Below the pieces are notes generated by a model that was not told where the DNA came from, searched no databases, and saw nothing but the letters and a program-made list of their open reading frames with translations. Position numbers and translations under genes: made by a program. DNA of 18,239 nt from a virus. Taxonomy: Duplodnaviria > Heunggongvirae > Uroviricota > Caudoviricetes. Shown here one piece after another: positions 2,105 through 18,239 of the stretch; within the stretch, counting starts at the first letter, position 1; each line of letters starts with the position of its first letter. The stretch is from positions 1-18,239 of IMG/VR virus record IMGVR_UViG_2713896729_000006; one strand, written 5' to 3'.

Positions 2105-2140
2105 TAAATTACAGATTTAATTTTATTGATTTATAGCGAT

Positions 2141-2165
2141 GTTGCCCCGAGAAAAATGGGGCAAC
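2141..2165 (+). terminator. GC-rich hairpin downstream of the AlpA-like gene; possible weak intrinsic terminator or regulatory hairpin
   Basis: GTTGCCCC (2141-2148), 9-nt loop GAGAAAAAT, GGGGCAAC (2158-2165). The downstream U-tract is poor (ACTGAGAAATTT), so efficiency is uncertain. Confidence 0.3.
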
Positions 2166-2222
2166 ACTGAGAAATTTCAGATAGTAGTTTTATATTGAGA
2201 TAACAAAGAGGTTTCCTTAAAA

Positions 2223-3077: not shown

Positions 3078-3103
3078 GAGGTAACAAAGAAGGACAAACA
3101 ATT

Positions 3104-3802
3104 ATGAGAGGTAAAATACTACTTTACCACTCAAAGTATCGCTGGCAATCACGCTCTATTTTTGGTTATTTTTTATACAAAATAACATTATTCAGGTATC
3201 AAAAAATAATTTATGACACCGGAGTGCATCAGATGCGTTCATTTTTTTACACCATATGCAGTAGCGAACAGCAAGAAAGCATTACAGATCATCACTCACT
3301 TGCTGAGATATGCCAAAAATTTAATATTCTACCTGAACATGTTGTGATCGAGCAGGTAGATATTAAAGAGGTTGTTTCAGAGCAACGTTTACTCAGACAA
3401 TTGATTCATCATGAAATGAACCGGCAGGACACGCTTGTCATTCCAGATCTAAGCTGTCTTGGCAGAACTGTGGAGGACTTACAGAATATTTTATTTTTTT
3501 GCCTTCAAAAAGAAATGTTTATCTACAGCTACCATCCAGCTTCAAGGATAGAGCCTTCTGCTGAAAGTTGCTTGTCTTTTTTGATTGCTCGTCAGGATAC
3601 GATTGACATTCACAATCTGAAATCAACTAAAAGCCGATATCGACATGTTAAGAAGAAATTAGGACGAAAGGAGGGAAGCAAATACCGACGTGATATCACA
3701 ATACTTAAGAAAGGTGGATTTACTCAGGCTGAGATTGCAAAGAAATTGAGTATCAGTTTATCGACTGTGAAGCGGCACTGGAATAACGGAATCATCGGTT
3801 AA
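3104..3802 (+). CDS. yagL: Serine-recombinase (resolvase/invertase)-like protein with C-terminal HTH; catalytic arginines substituted, so probably a non-catalytic DNA-binding protein; YagL-like
   Basis: FFYTICSSEQQ aligns to the resolvase YARVSTxxQ motif (Ser retained, Arg replaced by Ile). DTLVIPDLSCLGRT aligns to DTLVVxKLDRLGRS (first Arg replaced). C-terminal GGFTQAEIAKKLSISLSTVKRHW is a resolvase-type HTH. A resolvase-length protein would start at the internal Met at 3233 (MRSFFYT...); the 232-aa ORF from 3104 has the better SD (AAGAAGGA). Confidence 0.7.
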   Translation: MRGKILLYHSKYRWQSRSIFGYFLYKITLFRYQKIIYDTGVHQMRSFFYTICSSEQQESITDHHSLAEICQKFNILPEHVVIEQVDIKEVVSEQRLLRQLIHHEMNRQDTLVIPDLSCLGRTVEDLQNILFFCLQKEMFIYSYHPASRIEPSAESCLSFLIARQDTIDIHNLKSTKSRYRHVKKKLGRKEGSKYRRDITILKKGGFTQAEIAKKLSISLSTVKRHWNNGIIG

Positions 3803-3899
3803 TTCCAGAAGCTAATTGCAGAGTAACTTTTTAACAGCCATCACAGGCTGGGGCTACCTTCGTCTCAAATTTAGATGTTGGATAGGTATTATAATGGCA

Positions 3900-4071
3900 T
3901 TGTGTACTCTTACTACCTGTATTCACCAGTAAGAGTAGTAATCAGATCAGTATATCCGTACTAAGATCTGATACCAGTATATACCGACAACAGTGACCAG
4001 GAATAGCCCTGCCTGTATGGCATCCCTGTACGGTCTGCTATAGACCGTAGGACCAAATACAGGTATATATT
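3900..4071 (+). promoter_or_regulatory. Intergenic control region upstream of the yagK-like gene with three hairpin-forming inverted repeats and reiterated CTGTA/TACAG motifs
   Basis: Inverted repeats TACTCTTACT/AGTAAGAGTA (3905-3914 / 3928-3937), ATCAGATC/GATCTGAT (3941-3948 / 3965-3972) and TACGGTCT/AGACCGTA (4029-4036 / 4042-4049). Motifs CCTGTATTC, CCTGTATGG, CCTGTACGG and ATACAGGTA recur across the region. Confidence 0.4.
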
Positions 4072-4698
4072 ATGAAAACATATCAAGGTACTCATGGAGT
4101 ACATATCCTCGAATATCAGATCAAGATTAAAAAATTATTATGTTATTTGACTAACCGTTACCCCAGGTTAACGGCGGTACGTGTCGATCTGCATTATCCG
4201 AAGATAGTCGATAACGGAGACAATATCTGCTGTTTCCCTAATCTTGAACCAGGGGTGATATCCCGAATGCGTGATTCCCTCAGAGCTAAACTGGAGGCTG
4301 ACCGTACCCGTAAGGAGCGTGAAGGTAAACGCATCTACCGTTGCCCTTTATTTATTATATGGGCGAAAGAGTATTCTGAATCAGGTAAATGCCACTATCA
4401 CATTTGCCTGTTGTTCAACAAAGACGCTTACTACCACCTCGGGGATTACGATCAGCACGATAACCTGAGAGGGATGATTACGGGAGCGTGGTACAGCGCC
4501 CTGAGACTGGAGAGAGACGATCACCCAGGTCTGGTCCATTTTCCTGATAACTGTAAGTACGTGCTGGATACCAATAATGCTGACTTCCAGCATAACTACC
4601 AAGCGCTGTTAACCCGACTGGATTACCTCACCAAAGTCGAAAGCAAAGTGTTTGGTGAAGGAGACCGTAACTTCGGCTGTAGCCAAATCGATCTGTAA
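4072..4698 (+). CDS. yagK: YagK/YfjJ-family protein (inovirus Gp2-like family), 208 aa
   Basis: 208-aa ORF with the Cys/His-rich pattern of this family (CCFPN..., GKCHYHICLLFNKDAYYHLG). Size and position after the recombinase-like gene match yagK (and paralog yfjJ) of K-12 cryptic prophages. Assignment from memory. Confidence 0.65.
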   Translation: MKTYQGTHGVHILEYQIKIKKLLCYLTNRYPRLTAVRVDLHYPKIVDNGDNICCFPNLEPGVISRMRDSLRAKLEADRTRKEREGKRIYRCPLFIIWAKEYSESGKCHYHICLLFNKDAYYHLGDYDQHDNLRGMITGAWYSALRLERDDHPGLVHFPDNCKYVLDTNNADFQHNYQALLTRLDYLTKVESKVFGEGDRNFGCSQIDL

Positions 4699-4707
4699 GT
4701 CGGCAAT

Positions 4708-4737
4708 GGCCTTCTCTTTGTGGGAAGGCCTATTTTA
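4708..4737 (+). terminator. Putative rho-independent terminator after the yagK-like gene
   Basis: GGCCTTC (4708-4714), 9-nt loop, GAAGGCC (4724-4730), followed by TATTTTA (4731-4737). Lies between convergent genes. Confidence 0.5.
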
Positions 4738-4785
4738 CGTCAGAGTTCAATAATATAACCAGCAGATAACCTGCCCCCAGGATCT

Positions 4786-5577
4786 TCAATTTGGTGTGAT
4801 TTTTCCACTTTCAGTCATGATAGCGATTGCTTCGTCGATAGTCTGTGTTGTAAAGAGCGAGTTTTCCCTACAGTCCTTGCGAATCACCTTCCTGTTTTTT
4901 TGCACAGAAATGTTCTCGCACCAAGCTAATGTTTCGGCGGCATGCTTTTCTTCCATGCTAATGTCCAAAAAAGCGAGGCGGCTATCAAGGGATTGCATAT
5001 CCTCATTGACAATTGAAGGACTGGATTCTAGGAGGTTCAAACGGTTTTCAACATCGGCAACCTTGCCTTTCACCTGTGAGACGTCTTCCACCAATTTTTC
5101 ATGTCTGTGGATAGCATCAGCAAGTGCTCGTGAGTTTTGGGCCAATATTTCAGCCATTTGCGCGAGGGCAGATCCTTTTGCTTCTGGCGGTGGTGGATAT
5201 ACTCCATGTTTAGTCAACGATGGTATGACCTCATGGAATAACCATTTTTGAAAGCGCTTACCAGCCGCGCTTCGGTCACTCGACATAACTCGATACAAAC
5301 CTGGTTGGGTGACGAAGATCTCTTTCTGACCTTCAAAAACACCATTTTCAGCATCTGTAGTAATATACTCATCGGGGTCAAGAGCCTGTAATTGCGCCCT
5401 GATTATTCCAGCCATCGATTTTACTGTGTAATCAGCGTTGATTTCTCTATTTTCTTTATTCAGCGTGATTAAAACATCTCGTAGTGAGATATATAGAATC
5501 TCACCAAGTATCAATGTTCTTAGATCACTTTCACCAGTCTCACCACGGTAACATATCTTGGTCAGGTTACTATTCAT
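4786..5577 (-). CDS. Bro-N / antirepressor-like domain protein (263 aa) with coiled-coil C-terminal half
   Basis: N-terminal region with ...FQKWLFHEVIPSLTKHGVY..., matching the Bro-N/KilA-N-type consensus (WV..eVLP.iRk.G.Y). C-terminal half is heptad-like and charged. GTGAGGA lies 3-4 nt before the ATG. Confidence 0.65.
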   Translation of the reverse strand: MNSNLTKICYRGETGESDLRTLILGEILYISLRDVLITLNKENREINADYTVKSMAGIIRAQLQALDPDEYITTDAENGVFEGQKEIFVTQPGLYRVMSSDRSAAGKRFQKWLFHEVIPSLTKHGVYPPPPEAKGSALAQMAEILAQNSRALADAIHRHEKLVEDVSQVKGKVADVENRLNLLESSPSIVNEDMQSLDSRLAFLDISMEEKHAAETLAWCENISVQKNRKVIRKDCRENSLFTTQTIDEAIAIMTESGKITPN

Positions 5578-5632
5578 TGATCCTCACATCGCAAAGTATA
5601 GGCACATTCAAATCAGTATCTTTTTTCCTGTG

Positions 5633-5665
5633 CTGTTCTGAGGTGAGTATATCACCTCAGAACAG
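5633..5665. promoter_or_regulatory. Perfect 14-bp inverted repeat with 5-nt spacer between the end of the operon and the Bro-N gene start; candidate operator and/or RNA hairpin
   Basis: CTGTTCTGAGGTGA (5633-5646), GTATA, TCACCTCAGAACAG (5652-5665). No U-tract follows on either strand, so not a canonical intrinsic terminator. Confidence 0.45.
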
Positions 5666-5691
5666 GTGGCCAAATTCGGTGTGTCACTTCA

Positions 5692-6870
5692 CTATGCCTT
5701 CACCAGTTTCGCAGACATGGGGTCATAAACATACCCAATGATGCTACCATCCTTAATACGTGCAACAGCCTCATCGATAACGAATAACGGAACGAGAAAC
5801 CATTCCTCGGGCTGTACTGGATGGCCGAAACGGTCGTTAATGGTAATGTTAAGCCTTGCGGGTGCAAACAACCTGTGAAACAGGTTTTCCATCCGGGTGC
5901 GGTTGATGCCTGCAAGCTTGTATGAAGCTACTACCTCGACCTTCGCTAACAGATAGGTGGAATCGTGTTCCGCATTGGCAATACGCGCCTCTACTTTGCC
6001 GCCAGTCACTCCAATCTTGTGAATGACATCACGATGTTCAGCTACATAAGGGTTATCAGATAGCGAACGCAACACATAAATGGTGCCACTTTCTAGATCG
6101 CTCTCTTCTAGAGCATCGCTGAATAAAGGCCCCATGTCTGGATCGGTAATTCGGCGTGCTGTTTCGTCTTTATACAAAGCACGAACCAGTGACAGCCGAA
6201 GTAGGTTGCTTTCCGTACCATTCGAGTAAATGACACGCAGTCGAGCATCTTTCTTCCCCTGTGGCGAATCGAACTCTTCACCTTCCTCAGCCACATAAGC
6301 CGTTTGACCATCCAGGATGAACCAATGGCCCACTTCAATCGTTGCATACTGTCCAAAAGGTCGGGTCACTCTTAACCCTGAACTTAGATCACTGCGCACC
6401 TGTTCAAATAGCGGTTTGAATGTATCAAAATCCTCGCACGGCTTGCGATCCGCGATCCCTTGTACAGCACGCTTTTCGGAGCTAGCACGAACATGACGCA
6501 AGACTGTGATATCGTCCTCGCTGGTAACATCCGCCAGTTCGGCAGCCAAATTATCGATATCGATAAATTCGTCCGCTGACTCCGCTCCCTCCCCCCCTCC
6601 GGCCAACAAGCCCTGATGATCCAGCGGCTCTAGCAAGGCACGGCAGTCTGGGAGACTGCGTAGCCGGTCGAGCCGCACTGCATAGAGGCGCTCGAAGATC
6701 TCACGATCTTCGCCGTGTTGCGGCGCACGTCCATGTTGGTCAGCGAAGCGCTGGATTTCCTCAAAACCTGCGATGATGCGTTCCTCGCTGGCTGGACGTC
6801 CTTTTTTCTTCTCCGGTGGTGCAAATTCGGCAAGTTCTGCCGCCAAATCGTCTAAATCAGAATTACTCAT
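5692..6870 (-). CDS. GIY-YIG-like (T5orf172-type) domain protein, about 392 aa; third gene of the methyltransferase-helicase operon (B. subtilis YeeC-like)
   Basis: C-terminal region GTIYVLRSLSDNPYVAEHRDVIHKIGVTGGKVEARIANAEHDSTYLLAKVEV fits the GIY-(x10)-YIG-like/T5orf172 pattern with a following conserved Arg. The ATG at 6870 (MSNSDLDD...) overlaps the helicase stop (ATGAGTAA), so it is preferred over the longer ORF start at 6936. N-terminus carries two copies of a D(L/I)D(D/N)LAAELA(E/D) motif. Confidence 0.65.
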   Translation of the reverse strand: MSNSDLDDLAAELAEFAPPEKKKGRPASEERIIAGFEEIQRFADQHGRAPQHGEDREIFERLYAVRLDRLRSLPDCRALLEPLDHQGLLAGGGEGAESADEFIDIDNLAAELADVTSEDDITVLRHVRASSEKRAVQGIADRKPCEDFDTFKPLFEQVRSDLSSGLRVTRPFGQYATIEVGHWFILDGQTAYVAEEGEEFDSPQGKKDARLRVIYSNGTESNLLRLSLVRALYKDETARRITDPDMGPLFSDALEESDLESGTIYVLRSLSDNPYVAEHRDVIHKIGVTGGKVEARIANAEHDSTYLLAKVEVVASYKLAGINRTRMENLFHRLFAPARLNITINDRFGHPVQPEEWFLVPLFVIDEAVARIKDGSIIGYVYDPMSAKLVKA

Positions 6871-8908
6871 AATGTCCCTCCGCCCTAAAACGCATAAACG
6901 CGGCTGCACCTTCTGCAAGGTGCTTTTCCCAGGCATCCGGCGAAGTTAACGATGGGAGGCGTCCACGTTCACGTTTGAATTCAGCAGCACGCTTGGCGAT
7001 CACTTTGGCATCTTCAGGCGTGATCGAGGTACGCTTGGCCGAGATGGCCGCCGCGACCTGCTTCAAGCTATCTTCGCTCATTGTCTTAGCAAGGATGGCG
7101 TAGGCTTCACCAAAGGGATTGATGCGGTCGATAAGATCTATGTCTAAATCGCGTACGTCCATCGCAAAGCGACGCACTCCGTCAATAAGGGCAGTATTGA
7201 GCGTCCCATCGTTCTCGCCGTTGACAATACGCTTAGCCTGCTGCGTGAGATTAAGGGCGGCAATAGCGTGCTGACGCACAGCCTCCTGATCTTCAGCGCC
7301 AAGTTCAGGGTACTTTTCTTTGATGATCTTCCCCATACGAACCTGTGTTAATTCTTCAGGAATGAGCTCTTCGTCGAACAGTCCACGTTCGATGGCGGGC
7401 TTATCTTGCACAAAAGCCGCGATCACTTCATTTAAATCTTCCTGGCAGATGCGTGCCGCCTCTTTGCTCCTGGGCTCGGCAAGTCCCTTAATCTCGATTT
7501 GATACGTCCCTGTCTGCTCATTAACACCAAAATTGCAGTTATCCGGGTCATACCCTCCTTCACCATAATCAAAACCTGGGGTCGGGCCGCTTTCTGGGTT
7601 CTTAGGCTTGAACTCGAAGCGCGGAGCCAATACTTGCTCCATCAGCAGGCTTGCCGCGATGGCTTTCAAGGTATCGTTGACTGCCTCGGTGACTGCCCCC
7701 TCTACAGCATCCGGCTCGGCGATCAGGTTAGTAAACCTTGCGCGGGTTTTACCCGGCGCGTCGCGAGTGGCGCGACCGATGATCTGCACGATCTCAGTCA
7801 GGCTGGCACGGTAACCAACGGTCAACGCATGTTCGCACCAGATCCAGTCGAAACCTTCCTTCGCCATACCAAGTGCAATAATGATGTCCACATAATCACG
7901 GTCTGTCTTCATTTCTGCAGCACGGAGACTTTCCTGAATCTTGCCTTGGCTGGTTGGGTCCACCAGGTCAGCAATACGTAACACGCGTCCATCGAGGCAT
8001 TTGACTAGCTGAAAACCAGTCACAGGATCCGCTCCTTGCCAATCGCCAAGCTCGCCGAGAATGTGCTCCACCTCTTTGATTTTATCCTTCGTGCTCTCGC
8101 GCGAATTGACGTTGGGAATATGGATAATGGTCTTCTTGTCAGGATCGAGTACATTGAGGATGTCATCGACGTAGGAGCCACTGTAGAAGAAGTAGCCGAT
8201 ATCGAGTTGCTTGAGGTATTCGTAGCCGTTAAGTTGTTCGTAGTAGGTGTAGGTGACGGTATCGAACCTGGACTCATCCTGAGGAGCCAACACGGCCTCC
8301 GCATCACCCCGGAAGTAGGATCCGGTCATGGCAACGATGTGCGTCTTGTCCCGCGCGATAAACTGCCCCAGCTGCTGACCAAGCTTATTATCCGGGTTAG
8401 CTGACACATGGTGGAATTCATCGACCGCGATCAGGCGATCGTCAAACGCTTCTATACCGTAGGCATCGACCGCGAAGCGAAAGGTTGCGTGTGTGCAAAC
8501 AAGCACCTTGTCACTACTTTCAAGAAAAGAGCCAAAAGATCTTACCTTGCCACCGTTGTCGTTACCGGGCGCGTTGCACAGGTTCCACTTAGGTTCGACA
8601 TGCCAATCAGTCCAGAATCCAAACTGCGATAGCGGTTCATCGTTGAAGCTCGCGCCGATAGATTTTTCCGGCACAACGATGATTGCCTGTTTAATCCCTT
8701 GATTTTCGAGTTTGTCGAGTGCGACGAACATCAGAGCACGACTCTTACCGGAGGCGGGCGGCGACTTGATGAGAAGATATTGTTCTCCGCGCTTCTCATA
8801 GGCCCTTTCTTGCATAGGCCGCATCCCAAGAGCATTAGCCTTGGTCGATGCTCCGCTGCGTGAGTAGGTAACGGAAACGGACGGTACTGATTTAATCTTG
8901 TTGCTCAT
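6863..8908 (-). CDS. Superfamily 2 DEAD/DEAH-box helicase/ATPase (681 aa); second gene of the operon (YeeB-like)
   Basis: Walker A (LLIKSPPASGKSRAL), DExH box (LIAVDEFHHV), motif III-like (MTGS) and motif VI (QIIGRATR) in order, then a C-terminal extension of about 300 aa. Start ATG overlaps the methyltransferase stop (ATGA at 8905-8908). Confidence 0.85.
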   Translation of the reverse strand: MSNKIKSVPSVSVTYSRSGASTKANALGMRPMQERAYEKRGEQYLLIKSPPASGKSRALMFVALDKLENQGIKQAIIVVPEKSIGASFNDEPLSQFGFWTDWHVEPKWNLCNAPGNDNGGKVRSFGSFLESSDKVLVCTHATFRFAVDAYGIEAFDDRLIAVDEFHHVSANPDNKLGQQLGQFIARDKTHIVAMTGSYFRGDAEAVLAPQDESRFDTVTYTYYEQLNGYEYLKQLDIGYFFYSGSYVDDILNVLDPDKKTIIHIPNVNSRESTKDKIKEVEHILGELGDWQGADPVTGFQLVKCLDGRVLRIADLVDPTSQGKIQESLRAAEMKTDRDYVDIIIALGMAKEGFDWIWCEHALTVGYRASLTEIVQIIGRATRDAPGKTRARFTNLIAEPDAVEGAVTEAVNDTLKAIAASLLMEQVLAPRFEFKPKNPESGPTPGFDYGEGGYDPDNCNFGVNEQTGTYQIEIKGLAEPRSKEAARICQEDLNEVIAAFVQDKPAIERGLFDEELIPEELTQVRMGKIIKEKYPELGAEDQEAVRQHAIAALNLTQQAKRIVNGENDGTLNTALIDGVRRFAMDVRDLDIDLIDRINPFGEAYAILAKTMSEDSLKQVAAAISAKRTSITPEDAKVIAKRAAEFKRERGRLPSLTSPDAWEKHLAEGAAAFMRFRAEGHYE

Positions 8909-11712
8909 GCATTAGTTCTCACTTTACGCTTCTTGCCTTTGGCCGGTGCAGCAGAAGCGGCCATCTTTATATAAAGATCAAATAGCTTTTCAAGCCGCTC
9001 TGTATCATTCTTAAAGCGACGGCCGATGTAGATGCGCTCCAGTACTTCATCATTGCGATCATGCGCAGCCCGCAGATCAGTAGGCATGTTAGCAGGATCG
9101 TATAGGTCCGCGATGGTCGCGGGAAAATGATGCTCACGCGCCAGAAGTATGTCCTCCGCGCAGCGTGTGAGGTCAGCCTTGTTTTTTTCTGTGAGTTTTG
9201 GTACTGGGAAGGTGTTCCAGCCGAGGGTGTTAGAGTAGCGGTAGCGTGTTTCCAATTTTCCGCAGATGGTGGCGATCCAAACCAGGTGTAGACGAGATGC
9301 AATGAGCGCAAGATTCCAGAGCGGAGCGTCGTAGAGAGCAAAGGCGAGGTTACTGACTACCGAATGATTATCAATCAGTCCAACAGGAAGATACTCGCGC
9401 CCTTCCGATGAAACCCCCGGTAGAATCAGCGTGTGCTTGCCACCGTGATACATTTCGCGAAACTGATGAGCCCGTGATGCTAACTCATTCGTACCAGCAT
9501 CTTTACTTTTGAGCCGCATTTCCCGAACGCCATCAATCCGACCCCGAATAGACGCAATCTCCAAAGCTTGCGGCAATTTTACATCAGGGATCCAGAGGCA
9601 CTTACGTACTACTCCGCGAATAAACTCGGCAGAACCATAGATGCGCCGAAGAAATGTCTCTTCATCCTGCTTGCTCAAACCGAGCGAAACCGCGTCATCC
9701 GCCGATAACAAAAGATTTCCCCCATCGACGGGCATGTTGCCAAAAGACATATCCGGCAGACCCGATATGCTCTTGCGCTGGCCCTCGACTACAACATCCT
9801 CACCAACACTCAGATAGGGCGTGATGTTTGTCGCCTCGCGTACAGTAGTTTGGCCATTGCGGTCCAAGTCGTAAAGTAGCCTTGTCTTACTCACATCCGT
9901 AGATAGGCCGACGATAGCGACTGTTACACCCGCGTTGTGTGCAGCAAGGTTCGTCCATTTGAAGCTGGAGTGCGCGAAGCGAATGTGGGAGCCACATTTG
10001 AAAATTGCTGGCCACAGGATAGGAACAATTCGGCCTTGACAGATAGAGTTGGTGCTAACAAAAGCCGAATCCGTTGGTGTGGCTTGCGCGTAGGCAGCAG
10101 CTTTCATGAACCAACCACCAACATAATCGATTTGTTTAGACGAAATACCATAAGGTTCAAATACCGAAGCCAAATCCGCTTTCTGCTCTTTAGTCTGCGT
10201 TTGGCTACCTTTGTAAGGTGGGTTACCACAGATGTATGTCTCCCCACCTTCGTTCTGAAAGCCAATCTCTGCTTGACCGAGAGGCGTCTCAAAGAGGTTA
10301 TCTGCCTGCAACTTCACGCCAATTCCGGACGGAGGGCAAACGCTCAACCAATCAATCCGCAATGCGTTGCCACATGTAATCCAATTATCATTACGCAGAG
10401 GAAGAAACTCGGCCAGTGCAAGTTTTAGTCCCCGGTACACCACATCGCACTGATACTCAGCAATAACTAGCGCGAGACGGGCAATCTCCGCAGGGAAATC
10501 TCGTATTTCGATCCCGCGAAAGTTGGTAAGAGGGATGTCAGAGGCATTATCCATCTCGCCACGTCGTCGATTAATCTCGGCCTCGATGGCTCGCATTTCC
10601 TTGTACGCAATCACTAAGAAGTTGCCAGATCCACATGCTGGGTCGAATACGCGGATTCGGGCCATACGCTTGCGCAGATTGAGCAGCATGCGCGGATTGT
10701 CACCGGCTTCATCCAGTTTCGCCCGCAGTTCGTCGAGGAATAGTGGGTTAAGCACCTTGAGTATATTGGGGACACTAGTGTAATGCATTCCCAACTCACC
10801 ACGCTCTTCGTCTTCGGTAATGGCCTGAATCATCGAGCCGAATATGTCTGGGTTGATTTTGGTCCAATCCAGATTGCCAACATGTAGAAGATAGGATCGC
10901 GCAATACGGCTGAAGCGCGGTACCTCCTCACTTCCCGAGAAAAGAGCGCCGTTTACATAAGGAAACTCAGCAGCCCAACGCGGGATACCGACAACACTTC
11001 GCTCATCGCGTGGGGTGTTCATTGCACGAAACAACGTGGCGATGACCTCGTGCAAATTAGAAGCGTCGCGCTCACTCATCTGCGCAATAGTGTCAGTAAA
11101 GCGCCCCTTGCCTATAAATATGTCAGTGTCTTCGGCGAAAAAGCAGAAAATTAGACGCGCCATGAACTTGTTCATGTCATGACGACGCCCCGAAGTACCC
11201 CATTCAGGATTGTCTTTTAACAGTTCGACGTACAGGCGGTTCAAACGGCTAGTAGCACGGATGTCAAAGGCGTCTTCGCTGATCTGCCGAACAGTGCTGA
11301 TACCTGCCAATGGCAAAAAGAAGCCGAAGTGATCGGGAAAGTCTTTAAAGGCACAAGCCACAGTCTGACCACTGTTGAGGTCCTCGGCTTCAAAGTATTT
11401 GCCGTCCGTGGCAAGGATGAATTTCGCCTTGGCCTTGCCTGTTGCCGGGCTGGCCTTAAGTGCAGCCAGCATCTGTGTGACTTGGCCCCCTTCACTGGCC
11501 AGAATGTGGATGTTGTTTGTCTGAAGAACACCACCCAAGTCGGACTTATTCGATGCCCCGGCGCGCAGACGTTTGATGGTCGTTTCCTTGTTACCAAAGG
11601 CTTCAAGAAAAGCATAAGGAAACTCTATAGGATCAAAGGGTTGTTCCGCAAGATCCGTGATGGCTTGCTCAATTTCTACGGCGTTCATTTGCGTACAGTT
11701 CTCCATTGGCAT
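8905..11712 (-). CDS. MmeI-family (Type IIL/IIG-like) gamma-class N6-adenine DNA methyltransferase with C-terminal target-recognition region (935 aa); first gene of the operon (YeeA/PglX-like)
   Basis: Motif X-like (LGMHYTSVPNILKVLNPLFLDEL), motif I (VFDPACGSGNFLV) and motif IV (CGNPPYKGSQTQTKEQKADL) in gamma order. Further MmeI-like blocks: RLIFCFFAEDTDIF, FPYVNGALF, LDWTKINPDIFGS, SAFVSTNSICQG, LETRYRYSNTLGWNTFP, LYDPANMPTDLRAAH. The N-terminal 100 residues show no obvious D...ExK nuclease motif by eye. The true start may be the Met at residue 9 (MNAVEIEQ). Confidence 0.88.
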   Translation of the reverse strand: MPMENCTQMNAVEIEQAITDLAEQPFDPIEFPYAFLEAFGNKETTIKRLRAGASNKSDLGGVLQTNNIHILASEGGQVTQMLAALKASPATGKAKAKFILATDGKYFEAEDLNSGQTVACAFKDFPDHFGFFLPLAGISTVRQISEDAFDIRATSRLNRLYVELLKDNPEWGTSGRRHDMNKFMARLIFCFFAEDTDIFIGKGRFTDTIAQMSERDASNLHEVIATLFRAMNTPRDERSVVGIPRWAAEFPYVNGALFSGSEEVPRFSRIARSYLLHVGNLDWTKINPDIFGSMIQAITEDEERGELGMHYTSVPNILKVLNPLFLDELRAKLDEAGDNPRMLLNLRKRMARIRVFDPACGSGNFLVIAYKEMRAIEAEINRRRGEMDNASDIPLTNFRGIEIRDFPAEIARLALVIAEYQCDVVYRGLKLALAEFLPLRNDNWITCGNALRIDWLSVCPPSGIGVKLQADNLFETPLGQAEIGFQNEGGETYICGNPPYKGSQTQTKEQKADLASVFEPYGISSKQIDYVGGWFMKAAAYAQATPTDSAFVSTNSICQGRIVPILWPAIFKCGSHIRFAHSSFKWTNLAAHNAGVTVAIVGLSTDVSKTRLLYDLDRNGQTTVREATNITPYLSVGEDVVVEGQRKSISGLPDMSFGNMPVDGGNLLLSADDAVSLGLSKQDEETFLRRIYGSAEFIRGVVRKCLWIPDVKLPQALEIASIRGRIDGVREMRLKSKDAGTNELASRAHQFREMYHGGKHTLILPGVSSEGREYLPVGLIDNHSVVSNLAFALYDAPLWNLALIASRLHLVWIATICGKLETRYRYSNTLGWNTFPVPKLTEKNKADLTRCAEDILLAREHHFPATIADLYDPANMPTDLRAAHDRNDEVLERIYIGRRFKNDTERLEKLFDLYIKMAASAAPAKGKKRKVRTNA

Positions 11713-11993
11713 GTGACCGCCCTGCTGCTACTGGTGTGCAGTGAACTCATGTCATATCCTAGGTTTTCTTGGAAATTTTTGACCGTAAGTTTAACAGAAT
11801 AGAACCCAGCGCTGTAGCTGATTCAGTCTCAGATCCACGTTTCAGAAAGCCCTATTATGTATTTATGGCGAGAATTTTAGCATTGAGATATTTTCGATAA
11901 AATATACATATTTTCAGCCAATTAAAGACTGCTAAATTCATGGTATATGAGACGCTCGCATGTGAGTAACTTCCGTTCTTATTTCTGGTTTTC
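11713..11993 (-). promoter_or_regulatory. AT-rich intergenic region upstream of the methyltransferase gene; probable promoter region for the operon (elements not mapped)
   Basis: About 280 bp of AT-rich non-coding sequence between the IS66 remnant and the operon start, with no convincing ORF on the operon strand. Confidence 0.3.
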
Positions 11994-13316
11994 TTAAAAC
12001 GTATTAAGGTTGCACCGAATATGGTTTTCCCCGCTGACCCTGACCCGATTGACTGTCCAGTCAGCTATGACGTCAAGCACATGACGAAGGTAGCTTTCTG
12101 GATCCACGCCGTTTAGTTTGCACGTCCCGATCAGACTGTACATCAGCGCTACACGCTCACCTCCGTGGTCTGAGCCGAAGAACAGCCAGTTTTTTCTCCC
12201 CAAACTGACCATCCGCAGCGCATTTTCAGCGATGTTGTTATCGGCTTCTGTCCAGCCATTGCCTGCATAGTGCGTCAGGGCCGGCCACTGGTTAAGGGCG
12301 TACGCGAACGCTTTCGCCAGCTCTGAGTGTCGTGACAGGGTGTTCATCTTTTCACGCAGCCAGCTTTCCAGGGATTTCAGCAGCGGTTTCGCTTTCTGCT
12401 GACGTTCAGCAAGACGTTGCTCCGCCGGCATTCCCCTTATTTCCGCCCCGATGGCATACAACCCGCCGATACGCTTCAGGGCATCCTCCGTCAGCGCCGA
12501 CGGCGTGCGGGCGTACACATCGTGGATTTTACGGCGGGCGTGAGCCCAGCAGGCGGCTTCCGTTATCTGGCCACCGCGGTACAACTCGTTGAATCCTGCA
12601 TACGCATCCGCCTGCAGCACTCCCCTGAAGCCGGCAAGATGGGTCTGCGGGTGGATGGCTTTTCTGTCCGGGCTGTAAGCGAACCACACCGCCGGTGCGA
12701 CTGCTGACCCGGCGTTGCGGTCATCACGAACGTACTTCCACAATCGCCCGGACTTCGTCTTCTTATTGCCCGACAGCAGCATCTGGACCGGGGTATCATC
12801 GACATGGAGTTTGCCGTCGCTCAGGACATAGCCCCGAAGCGCCTCCTCCAGCGGTGACAGCAGCCTGCAGCATGCATCCACCCAGCCCGACAGGAGGGAG
12901 CGGCTCAGTTCCACACCCTGGCGGCTATATATTTCAGACTGGCGGTACAGCGGGGTATGCTCTGCATACTTTGAGCCCAGTACCCGGGCCAGCAGCCCCG
13001 CTCCGGCGATACTCCGCTCGATGGGACGTGAAGGCGCGGGGGCCTGCACGATAGCGTCGCATTTTGTACAGGCGTGTTTTTCCCGCACGGTCCGGATAAC
13101 CCGGAAGGCGCTGCGCATCAGCTCCAGCTGTTCAGCAGTATCTTCACCCAGCCAGCGCAGTGAATCGCCACAGTCCGGGCAGCATGATGCCGCCGACAAC
13201 AGCCGTTTTTCGTCACGAGGGAGTGATTCGGGGAACGGTTTACGGGTGCGGGTCTGGCGAAGCGACCACGCTCCAGCCGTTTGGTCAGCAGACACAGCCT
13301 GTCGCCGGTAGACCAC
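11994..13316 (-). pseudogene. tnpC: IS66-family transposase TnpC, lacking the N-terminal leucine-zipper segment and with an aberrant C-terminus
   Basis: Zinc-finger region (CCPDCGDSL...ACTKCD) and the conserved IS66 core are present. The ORF is about 440 aa against roughly 510-540 aa for intact TnpC, and the last 20 residues do not resemble the family C-terminus. Confidence 0.7.
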
Positions 13317-13486
13317 AGCAATTTTACCTGACTGCCACTGCAGCCCCGGAAGATGAAGACTTGGCCGGACATCGGGTCGTCTTTCAGTGCCGTCTGCACT
13401 TTTGCCGCCAGCCCGTTGAAGCCGTTGCGCATGTCGGTGATACCGGCAACCAGCCAGATTTTAGTGCCTGCAGGAAGATTTATCAT
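13118..13486 (-). pseudogene. tnpB: IS66-family TnpB (orf2), C-terminally aberrant; likely fused to tnpC by an internal deletion
   Basis: MINLPAGTKIWLVAGITDMRNGFNGLAAKVQTALKDDPMSGQVFIFRG...LWSTGDRLCLLTKRLERGRF is canonical IS66 TnpB for about 80 residues. The rest diverges and the ORF overlaps the tnpC frame by about 200 bp. Confidence 0.6.
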
Positions 13487-13866
13487 ACAGTCCCTCGCAT
13501 CAGTTCGCGCAGGACAGTGGTGATGAGTTCAGTTGAGGGATGAGTCAGTGTTATATCTCCGCCCCGACATTTTATGTGACAGGCAGTCTGAGGTGAACAG
13601 GATGGCGGTTCGGGCGTTGGGGGAGATGGCTCTGCCCGAAATTGCACGGGTATGAGAGCAGGAAGCGACGATGCGTTTTTCCGTGGGTGGCAGACCCGCC
13701 CTTCACGTTGCCAGAGCCTTATCCATTTAAAGAGCAGGTTGTCATTGACATCATGTTGTCGGGCCAGCGCAGCAACACTTCCTTCTTTTTCAAGTGCCAG
13801 CCTGACCAGTTCCATTTTAAACTCAGGGGAATATCGTTTTCGGGGAAGTCTTTCTTTGGCGCGCAT
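13483..13866 (-). CDS. tnpA: IS66-family accessory protein TnpA (orf1), 127 aa
   Basis: MRAKERLPRKRYSPEFKMELVRLALEKEGSVAALARQHDVNDNLLFKW... matches the IS66 orf1 pattern. Stop overlaps the tnpB start (ATGA). Confidence 0.8.
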   Translation of the reverse strand: MRAKERLPRKRYSPEFKMELVRLALEKEGSVAALARQHDVNDNLLFKWIRLWQREGRVCHPRKNASSLPALIPVQFRAEPSPPTPEPPSCSPQTACHIKCRGGDITLTHPSTELITTVLRELMRGTV

Positions 13867-14145
13867 TAGGTGTCCACCTGCAAATTAAGTGGGGGCTTAA
13901 GTTACAGGATAGTGGTTTCAGAGCCAGACGTTTTTGAGACAACGCTTACTCTAAACCCAAGCGTAAATGTCTATTATTGGCAAAATACCACCAGCCAACA
14001 TGAGCTGTGATGTAAAGTTGACACTGCTACAGTTACATGAGCCTGTTTATATTCTAAATAAATTCAGATAGATATTATCTCCGTGAATCCCCCGCCTCCC
14101 TGACCGGAGCGCGGGAATTTTTGTTTTTCACGCTGAGAACCCTGT

Positions 14146-14250
14146 ATGAATAAAACTGATGGCCTTCAGGCCCTGGAAAAACCGCTGGCGTCGCTTCCCG
14201 ATACGCTTCGCCAGCTTATTCTTGAACGTATTCAGAATCTGACCCACTAC
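14146..14250 (+). CDS. 5' fragment (35 codons) of an unidentified gene, cut by an N10 run
   Basis: ATG at 14146 opens MNKTDGLQALEKPLASLPDTLRQLILERIQNLTHY, running into the N-run at 14251. Product not recognised. Confidence 0.3.
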
Positions 14251-14260
14251 NNNNNNNNNN
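14251..14260. other. Run of 10 N (gap or masked junction)
   Basis: Exactly ten ambiguous bases separating unrelated sequence blocks. Confidence 0.95.
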
Positions 14261-14335
14261 GCCGTTGCCGAACGTAGGCCGGATAAGGCGTTCACGCCGC
14301 ATCCGGCAATCGGTGCACGATGCCTGATGCGACGC
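14261..14335. repeat. REP/BIME element (E. coli repetitive extragenic palindromic sequences)
   Basis: GTAGGCCGGATAAGGCGTTCACGCCGCATCCGGCA is the reverse complement of the canonical REP unit; a second REP begins at GCCTGATGCGACGC and is cut by the next N-run. Confidence 0.85.
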
Positions 14336-14345
14336 NNNNNNNNNN
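14336..14345. other. Run of 10 N (gap or masked junction)
   Basis: Exactly ten ambiguous bases. Confidence 0.95.
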
Positions 14346-14521
14346 GCCCCTGCAGCGGGTCATAATAGCGGTGGCGGTTGTAATACAGGCCGGACTCCTC
14401 ATCATACTGCTGACCCGGCAGGCGAATGAGCTGCTGCAGATGATGCGGGTTCTCATCACTCAGCAGGTTGCCCCATTCATCATATTCTGCGCACCACGCT
14501 GTTGCCCCTTCCGTGCTGATG
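14346..14521 (-). pseudogene. Fragment of an Rhs/YD-repeat protein core, bounded by N-runs on both sides
   Basis: Minus-strand translation [58 protein letters not shown] contains the Rhs core signature ([10 protein letters not shown]). Confidence 0.8.
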
Positions 14522-14531
14522 NNNNNNNNNN
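14522..14531. other. Run of 10 N (gap or masked junction)
   Basis: Exactly ten ambiguous bases. Confidence 0.95.
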
Positions 14532-14793
14532 CGAGCTGCTGCACCATATTCCTGAACAACTGAGCAAACGAGAGAGGTATACCGACAAATGGCAGCGACG
14601 CACACACTCCCTCTGGCGTCACCGGGCATGGCGCGCATCTGCCTTTACGGGGATTTACAACGATTTGGCCGCCGCATCGACCTTCGTGTGAAAACGGGGG
14701 CTGAAGCCATTCGGGCGCTGGCCACACAGCTCCCGGCGTTTCGTCAGAAACTGAGCGACGGCTGGTATCAGGTACGGATTGCCGGGCAGGATG
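14532..14793 (+). pseudogene. Second, divergent copy of a lambdoid tail K 3' end and I 5' end, bounded by N-runs
   Basis: Encodes ...ELLHHIPEQLSKRERYTDKWQRRTHSLWRHRAWRASAFTGIYNDLAAASTFV (K C-terminus) and, overlapping, MAATHTLPLASPGMARICLYGDLQRFGRRIDLRVKTGAEAIRALATQLPAFRQKLSDGWYQVRIAGQD (I N-terminus). Near-identical to 16832-17094 with roughly a dozen substitutions counted by eye. Confidence 0.8.
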
Positions 14794-14803
14794 NNNNNNN
14801 NNN
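14794..14803. other. Run of 10 N (gap or masked junction)
   Basis: Exactly ten ambiguous bases. Confidence 0.95.
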
Positions 14804-15212
14804 ATCAGGCGGTACAGCCATTCAGGCCGCTGCGGCGAAATTCCATTTTGCAACCGGAGGATTTACGGGAACCGGCGGCAAATATGAGCCAGCGGGGATT
14901 GTTCACCGTGGTGAATTTGTCTTCACGAAGGAGGCAACCAGCCGGATTGGTGTCGGCAACCTGTACCGCCTGATGCGGGGCTATGCGGAAGGTGGTTATG
15001 TGGGCGGTGCCGGAAGTCCGGCGCAGATGCGGCGGGCTGAAGGCATTAATTTTAATCAGAACAATCACGTGGTGATTCAGAACGACGGTACGAATGGTCT
15101 GCCAGGTCCACAGATGATGAAGGCGGTGTATGACATGGCCCGCAAGGGTGCCCGTGATGAAATCCAGGCACAGATGCGCGATGGTGGTCTGTTCTCCGGA
15201 GGTGGACGATGA
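14804..15212 (+). CDS. H: Lambda-like tail tape measure protein H, C-terminal fragment (5' end missing at the N-run)
   Basis: In-frame translation ...GGFTGTGGKYEPAGIVHRGEFVFTKEATSRIGVGNLYRLMRGYAEGGYVGG...MRDGGLFSGGGR matches the C-terminal end of lambda gpH. Stop overlaps the M start (ATGA). Confidence 0.8.
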
Positions 15213-15538
15213 AAACCTTCCGCTGGAAAGTGAAACCCGGTATGGATGTGGCTTCGGCCCCTTCTGTAAGAAAGGTGCGCTTTGGTGATGGCTATTCCCA
15301 GCGAGCGCCTGCCGGGCTGAATGCCAACCTGAAAACGTACAGCGTGACGCTTTCTGTCCCCCGTGAGGAGGCCACGGTACTGGAGTCGTTTCTGGAAGAG
15401 CACGGGGGCTGGAAATCCTTTCTGTGGACGCCGCCTTATGAGTGGCGGCAGATAAAGGTGACCTGCGCAAAATGGTCGTCGCGGGTCAGTATGCTGCGTG
15501 TTGAGTTCAGCGCAGAGTTTGAACAGGTGGTGAACTGA
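15209..15538 (+). CDS. M: Lambda-like minor tail protein M (109 aa)
   Basis: MKTFRWKVKPGMDVASAPSVRKVRFGDGYSQRAPAGLNANLKTYSVTLSVP... matches lambda gpM in sequence, size and position. Confidence 0.92.
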   Translation: MKTFRWKVKPGMDVASAPSVRKVRFGDGYSQRAPAGLNANLKTYSVTLSVPREEATVLESFLEEHGGWKSFLWTPPYEWRQIKVTCAKWSSRVSMLRVEFSAEFEQVVN

Positions 15539-16236
15539 TGCAGGATATCCGGCAGGAAACACTGAATGAATGCACCCGTGCGGAGCAGTCGGCCAGCGTG
15601 GTGCTCTGGGAAATCGATCTGACAGAGGTCGGTGGAGAACGTTATTTTTTCTGTAATGAGCAGAACGAAAAAGGTGAGCCGGTCACCTGGCAGGGGCGAC
15701 AGTATCAGGCGTATCCCATTCAGGGGAGTGGTTTTGAACTGAATGGCAAAGGCACCAGTACGCGCCCCACGCTGATGGTTTCTAACCTGTACGGTATGGT
15801 CACCGGGATGGCGGAAGATCTACAGAGTCTGGTCGGCGGAACGGTGGTCCGGCGTAAGGTTTACGCCCGTTTTCTGGATGCGGTGAACTTCGTCAACGGA
15901 AACAGTGACGCCGATCCGGAGCAGGAGGTGATCAGCCGCTGGCGCATCGAGCAGTGCAGCGAACTGAGCGCGGTGAGTGCCTCTTTTGTACTGTCCACGC
16001 CGACGGAAACGGACGGCGCTGTTTTTCCGGGACGTATCATGCTGGCCAACACCTGCACCTGGACCTATCGCGGTGATGAGTGCGGTTATCACGGTCCGGC
16101 GGTCGCGGATGAATATGATCAGCCGACGTCCGATATCACGAAGGATAAATGCAGCAAATGCCTGAGTGGCTGTAAGTTTCGCAATAATGTCGGCAACTTT
16201 GGCAGCTTCCTTTCCATTAACAAACTTTCGCAGTAA
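15538..16236 (+). CDS. L: Lambda-like minor tail protein L (232 aa)
   Basis: MQDIRQETLNECTRAEQSASVVLWEIDLTEVGGERYFFCNEQNEKGEPVTWQGRQYQAYPIQGSGFELNGKG... matches lambda gpL. Start overlaps the M stop by one base (TGATG). Confidence 0.92.
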   Translation: MQDIRQETLNECTRAEQSASVVLWEIDLTEVGGERYFFCNEQNEKGEPVTWQGRQYQAYPIQGSGFELNGKGTSTRPTLMVSNLYGMVTGMAEDLQSLVGGTVVRRKVYARFLDAVNFVNGNSDADPEQEVISRWRIEQCSELSAVSASFVLSTPTETDGAVFPGRIMLANTCTWTYRGDECGYHGPAVADEYDQPTSDITKDKCSKCLSGCKFRNNVGNFGSFLSINKLSQ

Positions 16237-16284
16237 ATCCCATGACAGAGACAGAATCAGCGATTCTGGCGCACGCCCGGCGAT

Positions 16285-16986
16285 GTGCGCCAGCGGAAGT
16301 CGTGCGGCTTCGTGGTGAGAACGCCGGAGGGGGAAAGATATTTTCCCTGCGTGAATATTTCCGGTGAGCCGGAGGATTATTTCCGGATGGCTCCGGAGGA
16401 CTGGCTGCAGGCAGAAATGCAGGGTGAGATTGTGGCGCTGGTCCACAGCCACCCCGGTGGTCTGCCCTGGCTGAGTGAGGCTGACCGGCGGCTGCAGGTG
16501 CAGAGTGATTTGCCGTGGTTGCTGGTCTGCCGGGGGGCGATTCATAAGTTCCGCTGTGTGCCGCATCTCACCGGGCGGCGCTTTGAGCACGGGGTGACGG
16601 ACTGTTACACGCTGTTCCGGGATGCTTATCATCTGGCGGGGATTGAGATGCCGGATTTTCATCGCGAGGATGACTGGTGGCGTCACGGTCAGAATCTCTA
16701 TCTGGATAATCTGGAGGCCACAGGGCTGTATCAGGTGCCGTTGTCATCAGCACAACCGGGCGATGTGCTGCTGTGCTGTTTTGGTTCATCGGTGCCGAAT
16801 CATGCCGCCATTTACTGTGGTGACGGTGAGCTGCTGCACCATATTCCTGAACAACTGAGTAAACGAGAGAGGTACACCGACAAATGGCAGCGACGCACAC
16901 ACTCCCTCTGGCGTCACCGGGCATGGCACGCATCTGCCTTTACGGGGATTTACAACGATTTGGCCGCCGCATCGACCTTCGTGTGA
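16285..16986 (+). CDS. K: Lambda-like tail tip assembly protein K (MPN/JAMM plus NlpC/P60 domains); start uncertain
   Basis: JAMM motif HSHPGGLPWLSEAD and downstream NlpC/P60-like region. The ORF opens at a GTG at 16285; an internal ATG at 16387 has a GGAGGA SD and would give a 199-aa product; an ATG at 16242 is in a different frame. Confidence 0.85.
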   Translation: MRQRKSCGFVVRTPEGERYFPCVNISGEPEDYFRMAPEDWLQAEMQGEIVALVHSHPGGLPWLSEADRRLQVQSDLPWLLVCRGAIHKFRCVPHLTGRRFEHGVTDCYTLFRDAYHLAGIEMPDFHREDDWWRHGQNLYLDNLEATGLYQVPLSSAQPGDVLLCCFGSSVPNHAAIYCGDGELLHHIPEQLSKRERYTDKWQRRTHSLWRHRAWHASAFTGIYNDLAAASTFV

Positions 16987-17531
16987 AAACGGGGGCTGAA
17001 GCCATCCGGGCGCTGGCCATGCAGAACCCGGCGTTTCGTCAGAAACTGAGCGACGGCTGGTACCAGGTACGCATTGCCGGGCGTGATGCAGGTGAAACCG
17101 AATTGTCTGCCCGTCTTAATGAGCCGCTGGCAAATGGTGCCGTGATCCACATCGTGCCGCGTCTGGCGGGAGCTAAAAGTGGCGGTGTGTTTCAGGTGGT
17201 GCTGGGGGCGGCGCTGATTGCGGTGGCATGGTGGAACCCTGTGGGCTGGCTGGGTGCCGCGGCTGTATCGGGCATGTATGCGGCAGGGGCCAGTATGATC
17301 CTGGGCGGAGTGGCGCAGATGCTGGCACCGAAAGCCAGGACGCCCACGGCAGCAAGTACAGATAACGGCAAACAGAACACCTATTTCTCGTCACTGGATA
17401 ACATGGTTGCCCAGGGCAATGTTCTGCCCGTTCTGTACGGTGAAATGCGCGTGGGGTCGCGGGTGGTATCTCAGGAAATCAGCACGGCAGACGAAGGGGA
17501 CGGTGGTCAGGTTGTGGTGATTGGTCGCTGA
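16884..17531 (+). CDS. I: Lambda-like tail assembly protein I (215 aa)
   Basis: MAATHTLPLASPGMARICLYGDLQRFGRRIDLRVKTGAEAIRAL...NGKQNTYFSSLDNMVAQGNVLPVLYGEMRVGSRVVSQEISTADEGDGGQVVVIGR matches lambda gpI. The 5' end overlaps the K 3' end in another frame. Confidence 0.9.
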   Translation: MAATHTLPLASPGMARICLYGDLQRFGRRIDLRVKTGAEAIRALAMQNPAFRQKLSDGWYQVRIAGRDAGETELSARLNEPLANGAVIHIVPRLAGAKSGGVFQVVLGAALIAVAWWNPVGWLGAAAVSGMYAAGASMILGGVAQMLAPKARTPTAASTDNGKQNTYFSSLDNMVAQGNVLPVLYGEMRVGSRVVSQEISTADEGDGGQVVVIGR

Positions 17532-17549
17532 TGCAAAACATTTTATGTG

Positions 17550-17576
17550 AAACCGCCTGCGGGCGGTTTTGTCGTT
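17550..17576 (+). terminator. Terminator-like GC hairpin with T-run between I and J
   Basis: AAACCGCC, loop TGCG, GGCGGTTT, then TGTCGTTT, 19 nt after the I stop. Confidence 0.4.
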
Positions 17577-17591
17577 TATGGAGCGTGACGA

Positions 17592-17837
17592 ATGGGTAAA
17601 GGCAGCAGTAAGGGGCATACCCCGCGCGAAGCGAAGGACAACCTGAAATCATCCCAGATGCTGAGCGTGATAGACGCCATCAGTGAAGGGCCGATTGAAG
17701 GTCCGGTGGATGGATTAAAAAGCGTACTGCTGAACAGTACGCCGGTGCTGGACAGTGAGGGGAATACCAACATCGCCGGTGTCACGGTGGTGTTCCGGGC
17801 TGGTGAGCAGGAGCAGACTCCGCCGGAGGGATTTGAA
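17592..17837 (+). CDS. J: Lambda-like host specificity / central tail fibre protein J, N-terminal fragment (82 codons), interrupted at an N-run followed by IS1
   Basis: MGKGSSKGHTPREAKDNLKSSQMLSVIDAISEGPIEGPVDGLKSVLLNSTPVLDSEGNTNIAGVTVVFRAGEQEQTPPEGFE matches the gpJ N-terminus. The frame runs into the N-run at 17838. Confidence 0.88.
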
Positions 17838-17847
17838 NNNNNNNNNN
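17838..17847. other. Run of 10 N (gap or masked junction) at the J/IS1 boundary
   Basis: Exactly ten ambiguous bases immediately before the IS1 terminal sequence. Confidence 0.95.
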
Positions 17848-18239
17848 GTAATGACTCCAACTTATTGATAGTGTTTTATGTTCAGATAATGCCCGATGAC
17901 TTTGTCATGAAGCTCCACCGATTTTGAGAACGACAGCGACTTCCGTCCCAGCCGTGCCAGGTGCTGCCTCAGATTCAGGTTATGCCGCTCAATTCGCTGC
18001 GTATATCGCTTGCTGATTACGTGCAGCTTTCCCTTCAGGCGGGATTCATACAGCGGCCAGCCATCCGTCATCCATATCACCACGTCAAAGGGTGACAGCA
18101 GGCTCATAAGACGCCCCAGCGTCGCCATAGTGCGTTCACCGAATACGTGCGCAACAACCGTCTTCCGGAGCCTGTCATACGCGTAAAACAGCCAGCGCTG
18201 GCGCGATTTAGCCCCGACATAGCCCCACTGTTCGTCCAT
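17848..18239 (-). mobile_element. IS1 terminus and adjoining part of the element (continues beyond the window)
   Basis: GTAATGACTCCAACTTATTGATAGTGTTTTATGTTCAGATAATGCCCGATGAC... is the IS1 terminal inverted repeat region, followed by insB coding sequence on the minus strand. Confidence 0.9.
17862..18239 (-). CDS. insB: IS1 transposase InsB, C-terminal 125 codons (5' part outside the window)
   Basis: [125 protein letters not shown] matches IS1 InsB. The window ends at an internal Met codon. Confidence 0.9.

Follow-up and report, generated by a model that had tools for sequence, protein, structure and literature searches.

A probable scaffolding artefact: short repeat-family fragments joined by ten-N runs beside an integrase-bearing island in a draft assembly of Escherichia coli RU1 MA1

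Repeat-contig scaffold mis-joins in short-read bacterial drafts are marked by N-runs of fixed length, by REP, Rhs, insertion sequence (IS) and paralogous prophage pieces set between them, by contig ends that fall at repeat boundaries, and by joins that are not reproduced between replicate assemblies. Velvet and SPAdes both behave as scaffolders with a minimum gap of ten Ns. In N-linker pseudo-molecules, N-runs of near-uniform length separate sequences that are unrelated on either side. True prophage-remnant or IS-scrambled regions, such as CP4-type islands and defective lambdoid prophages, are built from families that can look much the same (YeeP-type GTPases, IS66, IS1, lambdoid H-M-L-K-I-J tail genes), but they have real bases at their joins and recur in related genomes.

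Here we consider a window, by which we mean the whole stretch of DNA analysed (18,239 nucleotides), that begins in an integrase-bearing island and passes, through a series of N-runs, into lambdoid tail genes and an IS1 end. From the deposited record, from assemblies of sibling lines and from finished genomes of E. coli, we conclude, with a probability that we put at about 0.95, that the stretch 14128-14803 is a scaffolding artefact of a deposited draft assembly and not a biological locus.

A deposited scaffold of six blocks

All 50 Ns in the window lie in five runs of exactly ten: join 1 at 14251-14260, join 2 at 14336-14345, join 3 at 14522-14531 and join 4 at 14794-14803, the four that an earlier note, made from the sequence alone, had located between 14.1 and 14.8 kb, and join 5 at 17838-17847, just beyond the 14128-14803 range. 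From 5538 to 18239 the window, with each of these five runs, is identical to GenBank scaffold JRRJ01000088.1 (2,393,174 bp) of assembly GCA_001413355.1, the one public assembly that has the exact gpL protein encoded in the tail genes described below. Since the same runs stand at the same offsets in the GenBank record, they are joins in the submitter's scaffold and not masks applied later; of the earlier description of the stretch as "scaffolded or masked repeat-derived contigs", the first word therefore holds and the second falls. The patchwork begins 16.2 kb before the end of JRRJ01000088.1, which past the window has more N10-delimited blocks, of 2,336 and 5,448 bp, and then at least 585 bp.

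The assembly GCA_001413355.1 appears in a strain table as E. coli RU1 MA1, a mutation-accumulation clone, and nearby accessions are assigned to RU1, RU1 MA3-MA12, RU1 LB1-LB12 and RU1 BHI2-BHI12 (PMC9638481). Saxer et al. (2014) worked from one human-stool isolate, RU1, and derived twelve mutation-accumulation clones and replicate LB and BHI populations, all evolved lines being sequenced as HiSeq 100-bp paired reads (PMC4263409). Judging from the matching names, the deposits would be those of the RU1 lines of Saxer et al. (2014). That paper gives neither accession numbers nor a de novo assembly of the evolved lines (PMC4263409). The RU1 assemblies contain scaffolds of 2-4.4 Mb, yet up to at least 246 separate records per assembly.

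The N-runs separate six blocks, namely A (1-14250), B (14261-14335), C (14346-14521), D (14532-14793), E (14804-17837) and F (17848 to the window end). Sequences on either side of each run are unrelated and cut in the middle of a feature: a GTPase gene at codon 35, an Rhs core internally, a K/I piece, the C-terminus of H, and J at nucleotide 246. No suffix/prefix overlap longer than 2 nt was found between neighbouring blocks in any of the pairs that lie side by side, and G+C content, 0.48 in block A, jumps to 0.53-0.65 in the later blocks. The earlier note had read the blocks, from left to right, as an unknown gene start, a REP/BIME pair, an Rhs core fragment on the opposite strand, a second lambdoid K/I junction and the lambdoid H tail, and each of these identifications is borne out below, with the gene start now given a name.

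Most of block A (1-14145) is the integrase-bearing island itself, with a Type IIG MmeI-like restriction-methylase, a DEAD helicase, a T5orf172 protein and a truncated IS66 copy (Pfam, PADLOC). This part is genuine contiguous sequence: it is base-for-base the same in eight sibling assemblies, each to its own break, and collinear with the finished genome BE2-5 at 93-94% identity. The remaining 105 nt (14146-14250, plus strand), which start at an ATG and comprise 35 codons before the end of contig A cuts them short, are the formerly unknown gene start; they correspond to the 5' end of a gene of YeeP/YkfA/YfjP type that is labelled "GTPase family protein" in finished genomes, where it lies directly downstream of the truncated IS66 copy. 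The IS66-GTPase junction is carried by BE2-5 at 99.8% identity.

Block B is a contig of 75 nt holding one REP palindrome and the first ~15 nt of a second, that is, a BIME fragment. Its imperfect palindrome (GCCGGAT..ATCCGGC), of the ~35-nt kind expected of a REP element, is readable directly in the sequence. It finds matches in all 5,426 complete E. coli genomes (5,426/5,426), at 9-54 places per genome among the matches listed, and among these it never falls under an annotated feature; the aceA-aceK spacer of BE2-5 contains it letter for letter. Block C, a contig of 176 nt read on the minus strand, is an internal piece of an Rhs core near the C-terminal end, its translation including the motif YDEWGNLL of the YD-repeat core. 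In 3,883 genomes it matches genes annotated as "RHS repeat-associated core domain-containing protein", the median number of places per genome being 5, with an exact copy in rhs orphan fragments near yibA/yibG.

Block D, 262 nt long, carries on the plus strand the 3' end of lambdoid K and the 5' end of I, whose ATG is at 14589. It is annotated as C40 peptidase and tail assembly protein, and the median genome has it at 2 places, the maximum being 12. Compared with the window's own K/I junction at 16828-17088 it is 95.4% identical (12 mismatches) and is, by its sequence, a second allele of that junction. Its counterpart in finished prophages lies downstream of L, ~2 kb past the point at which block E begins, and not upstream of H as in the window.

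Block E, a contig of 3,034 nt, is a lambda-type tail module on the plus strand, with the last 135 codons of H (14804-15212), M (15209-15538), L (15538-16236), K (16285-16986), I (16884-17531) and the first 246 nt, or 82 codons, of J (17592-17837). Its Pfam hits follow in the order Phage_min_tail, Phage_tail_L, NLPC_P60 and Lambda_tail_I, and T-H-M-L-K-I-J-lom is the usual gene order, seen in ten other genomes. The gpM protein is so common that a look-up with it, aimed at the surroundings of block E in the siblings, brought up unrelated strains only. Block F (17848-18239, minus strand), the start of a contig of 2,336 nt, begins one base inside an IS1 terminal repeat and is annotated as IS1 family transposase, with Pfam hits to InsA and DDE_Tnp_IS1.

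Matches in complete genomes thus place blocks B, C, D and F in repeat families. The earlier statement that every block belongs to a multi-copy class needs tempering for the end of block A: the GTPase family does have several copies, at 2 places in the median genome and 7 at most, yet its paralogues are only ~70% identical in DNA.

Neighbours of the island in sibling assemblies and finished genomes

The RU1 lines descend from one clonal ancestor, from which they are only hundreds to a few thousand generations away, and their assemblies therefore amount to near-replicates of a single genome. With the 935-aa MmeI-like protein of the island as query, eight siblings were retrieved, all base-for-base identical to the window from position 1 to their own break. 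That break falls within a nine-nucleotide interval (14246-14254) in six of the eight, at 14188 in one and at 12398 in one; seven siblings have an N10 run there, while LB12 has none and reads through. BHI3 and LB7 are identical to 14250, continue with GA and pass through an N10 run to prophage lysis/terminase genes and to the cysH side, respectively. MA10 and BHI7, also identical to 14250, continue with GAGC and then, past an N10 run, enter the pptA/narZ region in the former and the cyaA/cyaY region in the latter. The remaining three break earlier, LB9 at 14246, with a umuC-like gene and the dgo operon beyond its N10 run, LB10 at 14188, with the yafV/fadE region, and LB5 at 12398, inside IS66, with the nagB region. 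Among the first 1.5 kb of these seven far sides, the B-E stretch of the window and the continuation in LB12, no similarity was detectable. As the neighbours differ in every replicate, the joins in the window do not represent genomic adjacency.

What lies to the right of contig A can be read in LB12, which crosses the position directly, and in BE2-5. Past 14250 the GTPase reading goes on as GAGCCGGTG... in both; in BE2-5, GAGCCGGTGATTGG... follows the 35 codons and leads into a gene of 876 nt, after which come antirestriction, RadC, DUF987, YeeU/CbtA and DUF4942 genes, a CP4-type island module. The full GTPase product in LB12 has 291 aa, with MMR_HSR1/RsgA_GTPase Pfam hits, and the intact gene is followed by a CP4-like module at least 7.5 kb long, the whole running collinear with BE2-5 (89-91% identity). 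Contig A would thus in truth continue into the rest of the GTPase gene and the CP4-like module. The caution that adjacency of everything right of about 14.1 kb was unproven can accordingly be put more strongly, the sibling assemblies and the read-through in LB12 and BE2-5 contradicting it outright.

Two long-contig strains, GCA_030187025.2 and GCA_014903125.1, bear on the same question. Their flanks are 99.97-99.99% identical to RU1, they are without the IS66-GTPase segment, and in them window position 12043/12036 is followed by an 80-nt IS5-end remnant and then by the umuC-like gene and dgo operon. The far side of the join in LB9 begins exactly after that 80-nt remnant. Because it coincides with the flank in these strains, the LB9 join is order-correct, and the whole island complex probably has the umuC-like/dgo region as its chromosomal flank. 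How LB9 came to join across a module of at least 7.5 kb would be explained either by a true gap that is short, LB12 then following a paralogous path, or by some other source of ordering information. The evidence from BE2-5 and LB12 can be reconciled with that from the long-contig strains, but neither can be reconciled with the order in the window. Some N10 joins therefore hold real order information, and those of MA1 agree with none of it.

Complete genomes offer no counterpart for the window's arrangement: none of the 5,426 from E. coli covers at least 80% of 13000-16000 in one place. The best place found covers 49% of that query, with blocks D and E joined out of order, because D maps ~2 kb downstream of the start of E. 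The fifth join fares no better, the arrangement of J start, IS1 and CPBP being found in 0 of the 5,426.

Possible origins of the joins

In the sequence of events that we consider most probable, the short-read draft of RU1 MA1 would have run out of unique sequence, contig A stopping 105 nt into the GTPase gene, and the pipeline would then have chained small contigs to it (the 75-nt REP piece, the 176-nt Rhs piece, the 262-nt K/I piece, the 3-kb lambdoid tail and the IS1-led contig), putting a fixed placeholder of ten Ns between each pair. Copy-specific fragments of repeat families may be leftovers of a k-mer assembler, retained as separate nodes, which a scaffolder could have mis-linked through multi-mapping read pairs and spaced with its minimal placeholder gap. 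Contig ends are found at repeat boundaries, at an IS1 terminus (block F), at the end of the IS5 remnant (LB9 far side) and in IS66 (LB5). Across ~250 kb of RU1 sibling sequence, 14 of 15 N-runs are exactly 10 long and the other, in LB5, has 378 Ns, as would suit a scaffolder that estimates gaps and sets 10 as their minimum, and the joins would accordingly come from a read-pair scaffolder with a ten-N minimum gap.

Four points count against this account. The paper on the lines names no assembler or scaffolder (PMC4263409), so that the mechanism of the joins is one that we infer; the order-correct join in LB9 means that the joins are not all random; and a plain read-pair scaffolder would seldom yield megabase scaffolds from 100-bp paired reads. 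The fourth is the recurrence of the break at 14246-14254, of which the likeliest cause would be an exact repeat within the RU1 genome. A high-identity multi-copy GTPase gene was considered as that cause and rejected, since the few complete genomes with the rest of the gene have it once and its paralogues are too divergent (~70%); nor did the loci examined contain a second GTPase copy that would explain the break. The distances between the mismatches that set block D apart from its paralogue gave no value for an assembler k, the margins of 33 nt on the left and 4 nt on the right forming no clean k-1.

Because scaffolds of 2-4.4 Mb are larger than read-pair scaffolding usually gives, a variant of the artefact stays live in which contigs were concatenated with N10 linkers, in arbitrary or reference-guided order and independently of read-pair evidence, into pseudo-scaffolds for submission. 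The size of scaffolds built from 100-bp paired reads, the different neighbours in replicate assemblies and the near-constancy of the N-runs all suit this variant, but the many records left separate in each assembly indicate that not everything was joined, the 378-N gap that some gaps were sized, and the LB9 join would have had a chance of less than about 1% under an arbitrary order. We regard it as a tentative alternative, clearly short of an even chance.

The joins might instead be scaffold links that are correct in order, the blocks being true neighbours in MA1 split by unassembled repeats and wrong only in the size of their gaps. The resumption of LB9 exactly after the 80-nt IS5-end remnant, as in the two long-contig strains, shows that such links exist among the siblings, the sized gap in LB5 points to the involvement of a gap-estimating scaffolder, and block F starts at an IS1 terminus as expected of a true IS1 insertion in J. 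In MA1, however, this reading would place a REP element, an internal Rhs core and a K/I piece upstream of H within a few hundred bases, as in no complete genome; seven siblings of the same ancestor show seven other neighbours, the K/I allele lies downstream of L in every lambdoid prophage examined, and the J/IS1/CPBP arrangement is absent from the 5,426 genomes. We therefore regard it as very improbable. As little weight attaches to the idea that at least one join records a real event in MA1, such as an IS1 insertion in J (17837/17848) or an IS- or repeat-mediated rearrangement between island and prophage, of which the patchwork would be a garbled trace.

A further reading, in which a downstream database or pipeline put in the N10 runs as masks or excisions that hide real bases of a contiguous contig, was suggested by a viral-contig copy (L002) that has "GA" at the window's first two Ns. 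L002 is the one viral contig hit by a 39-mer from 14.05 kb, which, like a pattern spanning an N-run, had no match among species-representative genomes. L002, however, ends in GA just as the siblings BHI3 and LB7 do, which makes it the contig of a sibling, so that it does not show the window unmasked; no interrupted gene resumes after any N-run, and the presence of identical Ns in JRRJ01000088.1, all five at the same offsets, refutes masking, to which we assign a negligible probability. Equally close to nil is the chance that the stretch is a true mosaic, contiguous but for tiny sequencing gaps, for instance a recombination junkyard of repeat fragments beside the island, for which nothing speaks apart from the record itself and against which stand the read-through and divergent neighbours in siblings, the occurrence of the arrangement in 0 of 5,426 complete E. 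coli genomes and the truncation of every block in mid-gene on both sides.

Consequences and comparison with known systems

Reading the window as contiguous produces artefactual open reading frames. The two that the earlier note had called artefacts are both in the list of open reading frames, both cross N-runs and both have chimeric translations. One (14589-15212, plus strand) joins residues 1-68 of gpI, through XXXX, to the last 135 residues of gpH and exists as a gene call of 207 aa (L147 9052-9675); the other (14128-14853, minus strand) crosses all of the first four N-runs, with four XXXX blocks, and has been called in a 138-aa version at 14128-14544 (L147 8591-9007). A third (17592-17927, plus strand) fuses the N-terminus of J across the N10 run to the IS1 end and is a gene call of 111 aa (L147 12055-12390). 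These three N-crossing chimeras (207, 138 and 111 aa) are thus already gene calls on the GenBank record in a public gene index.

At both ends of the window stands an ATG, on the left one within the integrase gene and on the right that of an IS1 open reading frame, and a predicted provirus of 33,280 bp from a sibling, present in IMG/VR, starts at the same base as the window. Very probably, then, the window is itself a predicted provirus, in which only N10 joins connect the integrase with the tail genes. In an intact provirus, integrase and structural genes would lie on one contiguous DNA; here they do not. As only four N10 joins, which the replicates contradict, connect the integrase island (1-14250) with the tail genes (14804-17837), the provirus is a chimera. 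The N10 chain makes a restriction island look linked to lambdoid tail genes, which probably explains the placement of the stretch among predicted proviruses.

The patchwork itself is without biological significance, and its bearing is on data hygiene. Inferences on synteny, prophage completeness, island cargo or novel fusion proteins are invalid where they cross 14251-14803 or 17838-17847. The RU1 sibling assemblies, for their part, make a handy replicate set for detecting joins of this type.

Of the systems set out at the start, repeat-contig scaffold mis-joins resemble the RU1 case in all the marks given there, from the fixed N-runs and the REP, Rhs, IS and paralogous prophage pieces to the ends at repeat boundaries and the joins that replicates do not reproduce, and differ from it in that RU1 has scaffolds of 2-4.4 Mb and one order-correct sibling join, that of LB9. 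N-linker pseudo-molecules are alike in their near-uniform N-runs (14 of 15 being 10 N in RU1) and in the unrelated sequence on either side, whereas the RU1 assemblies retain many separate records and include one gap of 378 N. With true prophage remnants and IS-scrambled regions the window has its gene families in common, but where those have real bases at their joins and recur from one related genome to the next, its own junctions consist of Ns and are different in every replicate.

Assembly joins around the truncated GTPase gene

Six of the eight draft sibling assemblies, made from lines of the same RU1 ancestor, break within the same 9 nt (window 14246-14254) of the YeeP/YfjP-type GTPase gene, which points to an exact repeat in the RU1 genome that has so far gone undetected; between paralogues of this GTPase gene elsewhere, identity reaches only about 70%. 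The IS66-GTPase segment is itself absent from two near-identical strains with long contigs (GCA_030187025.2 and GCA_014903125.1), both of which pass from window position ~12043 into an 80-nt IS5-end remnant, then a umuC-like gene and the dgo operon. In the sibling LB9, the sequence following the run of ten Ns (L139 7457-7466; compare L141/L143 around 9629-9709 and window 12036-12043) restarts exactly past this remnant, so the LB9 join, unlike those of MA1, preserves the correct order.

Probable chimeric proviruses and the lambdoid tail contig

An IMG/VR record of 33,280 bp, IMGVR_UViG_2700989274_000006 (L002), listed there as a predicted provirus, carries at its positions 1-14252 the window from 1 to 14250 plus 'GA'; it therefore derives from a sibling assembly of the BHI3 or LB7 break type, its remaining ~19 kb sitting past an N10 join. 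Predicted proviruses from these RU1 assemblies are likely to be scaffolding chimeras. Within block E, the lambdoid tail contig, the exact 232-aa gpL (window 15538-16236) is recorded in the RU1 MA1 assembly alone, although more than 30 siblings descended from that ancestor have been assembled. Two lambdoid prophages may have been collapsed into block E, or merged there into a chimeric consensus; alternatively, the siblings may be fragmented at this point. The fifth N10 run (17838-17847) has on its left the opening 246 nt of the lambdoid J gene and on its right an IS1-led contig that starts one base inside the IS1 terminal repeat. An ORF crossing this run (17592-17927) has already been called as a 111-aa gene, and the J-IS1-CPBP arrangement was found in none of 5,426 complete E. 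coli genomes.

Integrase end and restriction island

The window starts at an internal ATG, 75 nt into a gene for a 466-aa integrase (window 1-1326 and upstream; 20387-22808 in loci L137-L145). In the sibling scaffolds a second integrase gene lies directly beyond this one, which suggests that a single attachment site holds two tandem islands. Further in, a near-perfect 33-nt palindrome (5633-5665), probably a terminator, separates the region of a convergent Bro-N-like ORF (4786-5577, minus strand) from the end of the T5orf172/GIY-YIG gene. The latter belongs to a minus-strand trio of the island (5692-11712) headed by a 935-aa MmeI-like Type IIG restriction-methylase, which PADLOC assigns to REase_MTase_IIG (E = 3e-283). 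Downstream of it the genes for a 681-aa DEAD/ResIII helicase and the T5orf172/GIY-YIG protein, neither matched by PADLOC, follow with overlapping ends. The finished E. coli genome BE2-5 also carries the trio. Identity there is 93-94% outside 9272-10346, a segment that yields no alignment at megablast level; it lies within the methylase gene and may represent a swapped target-recognition region.
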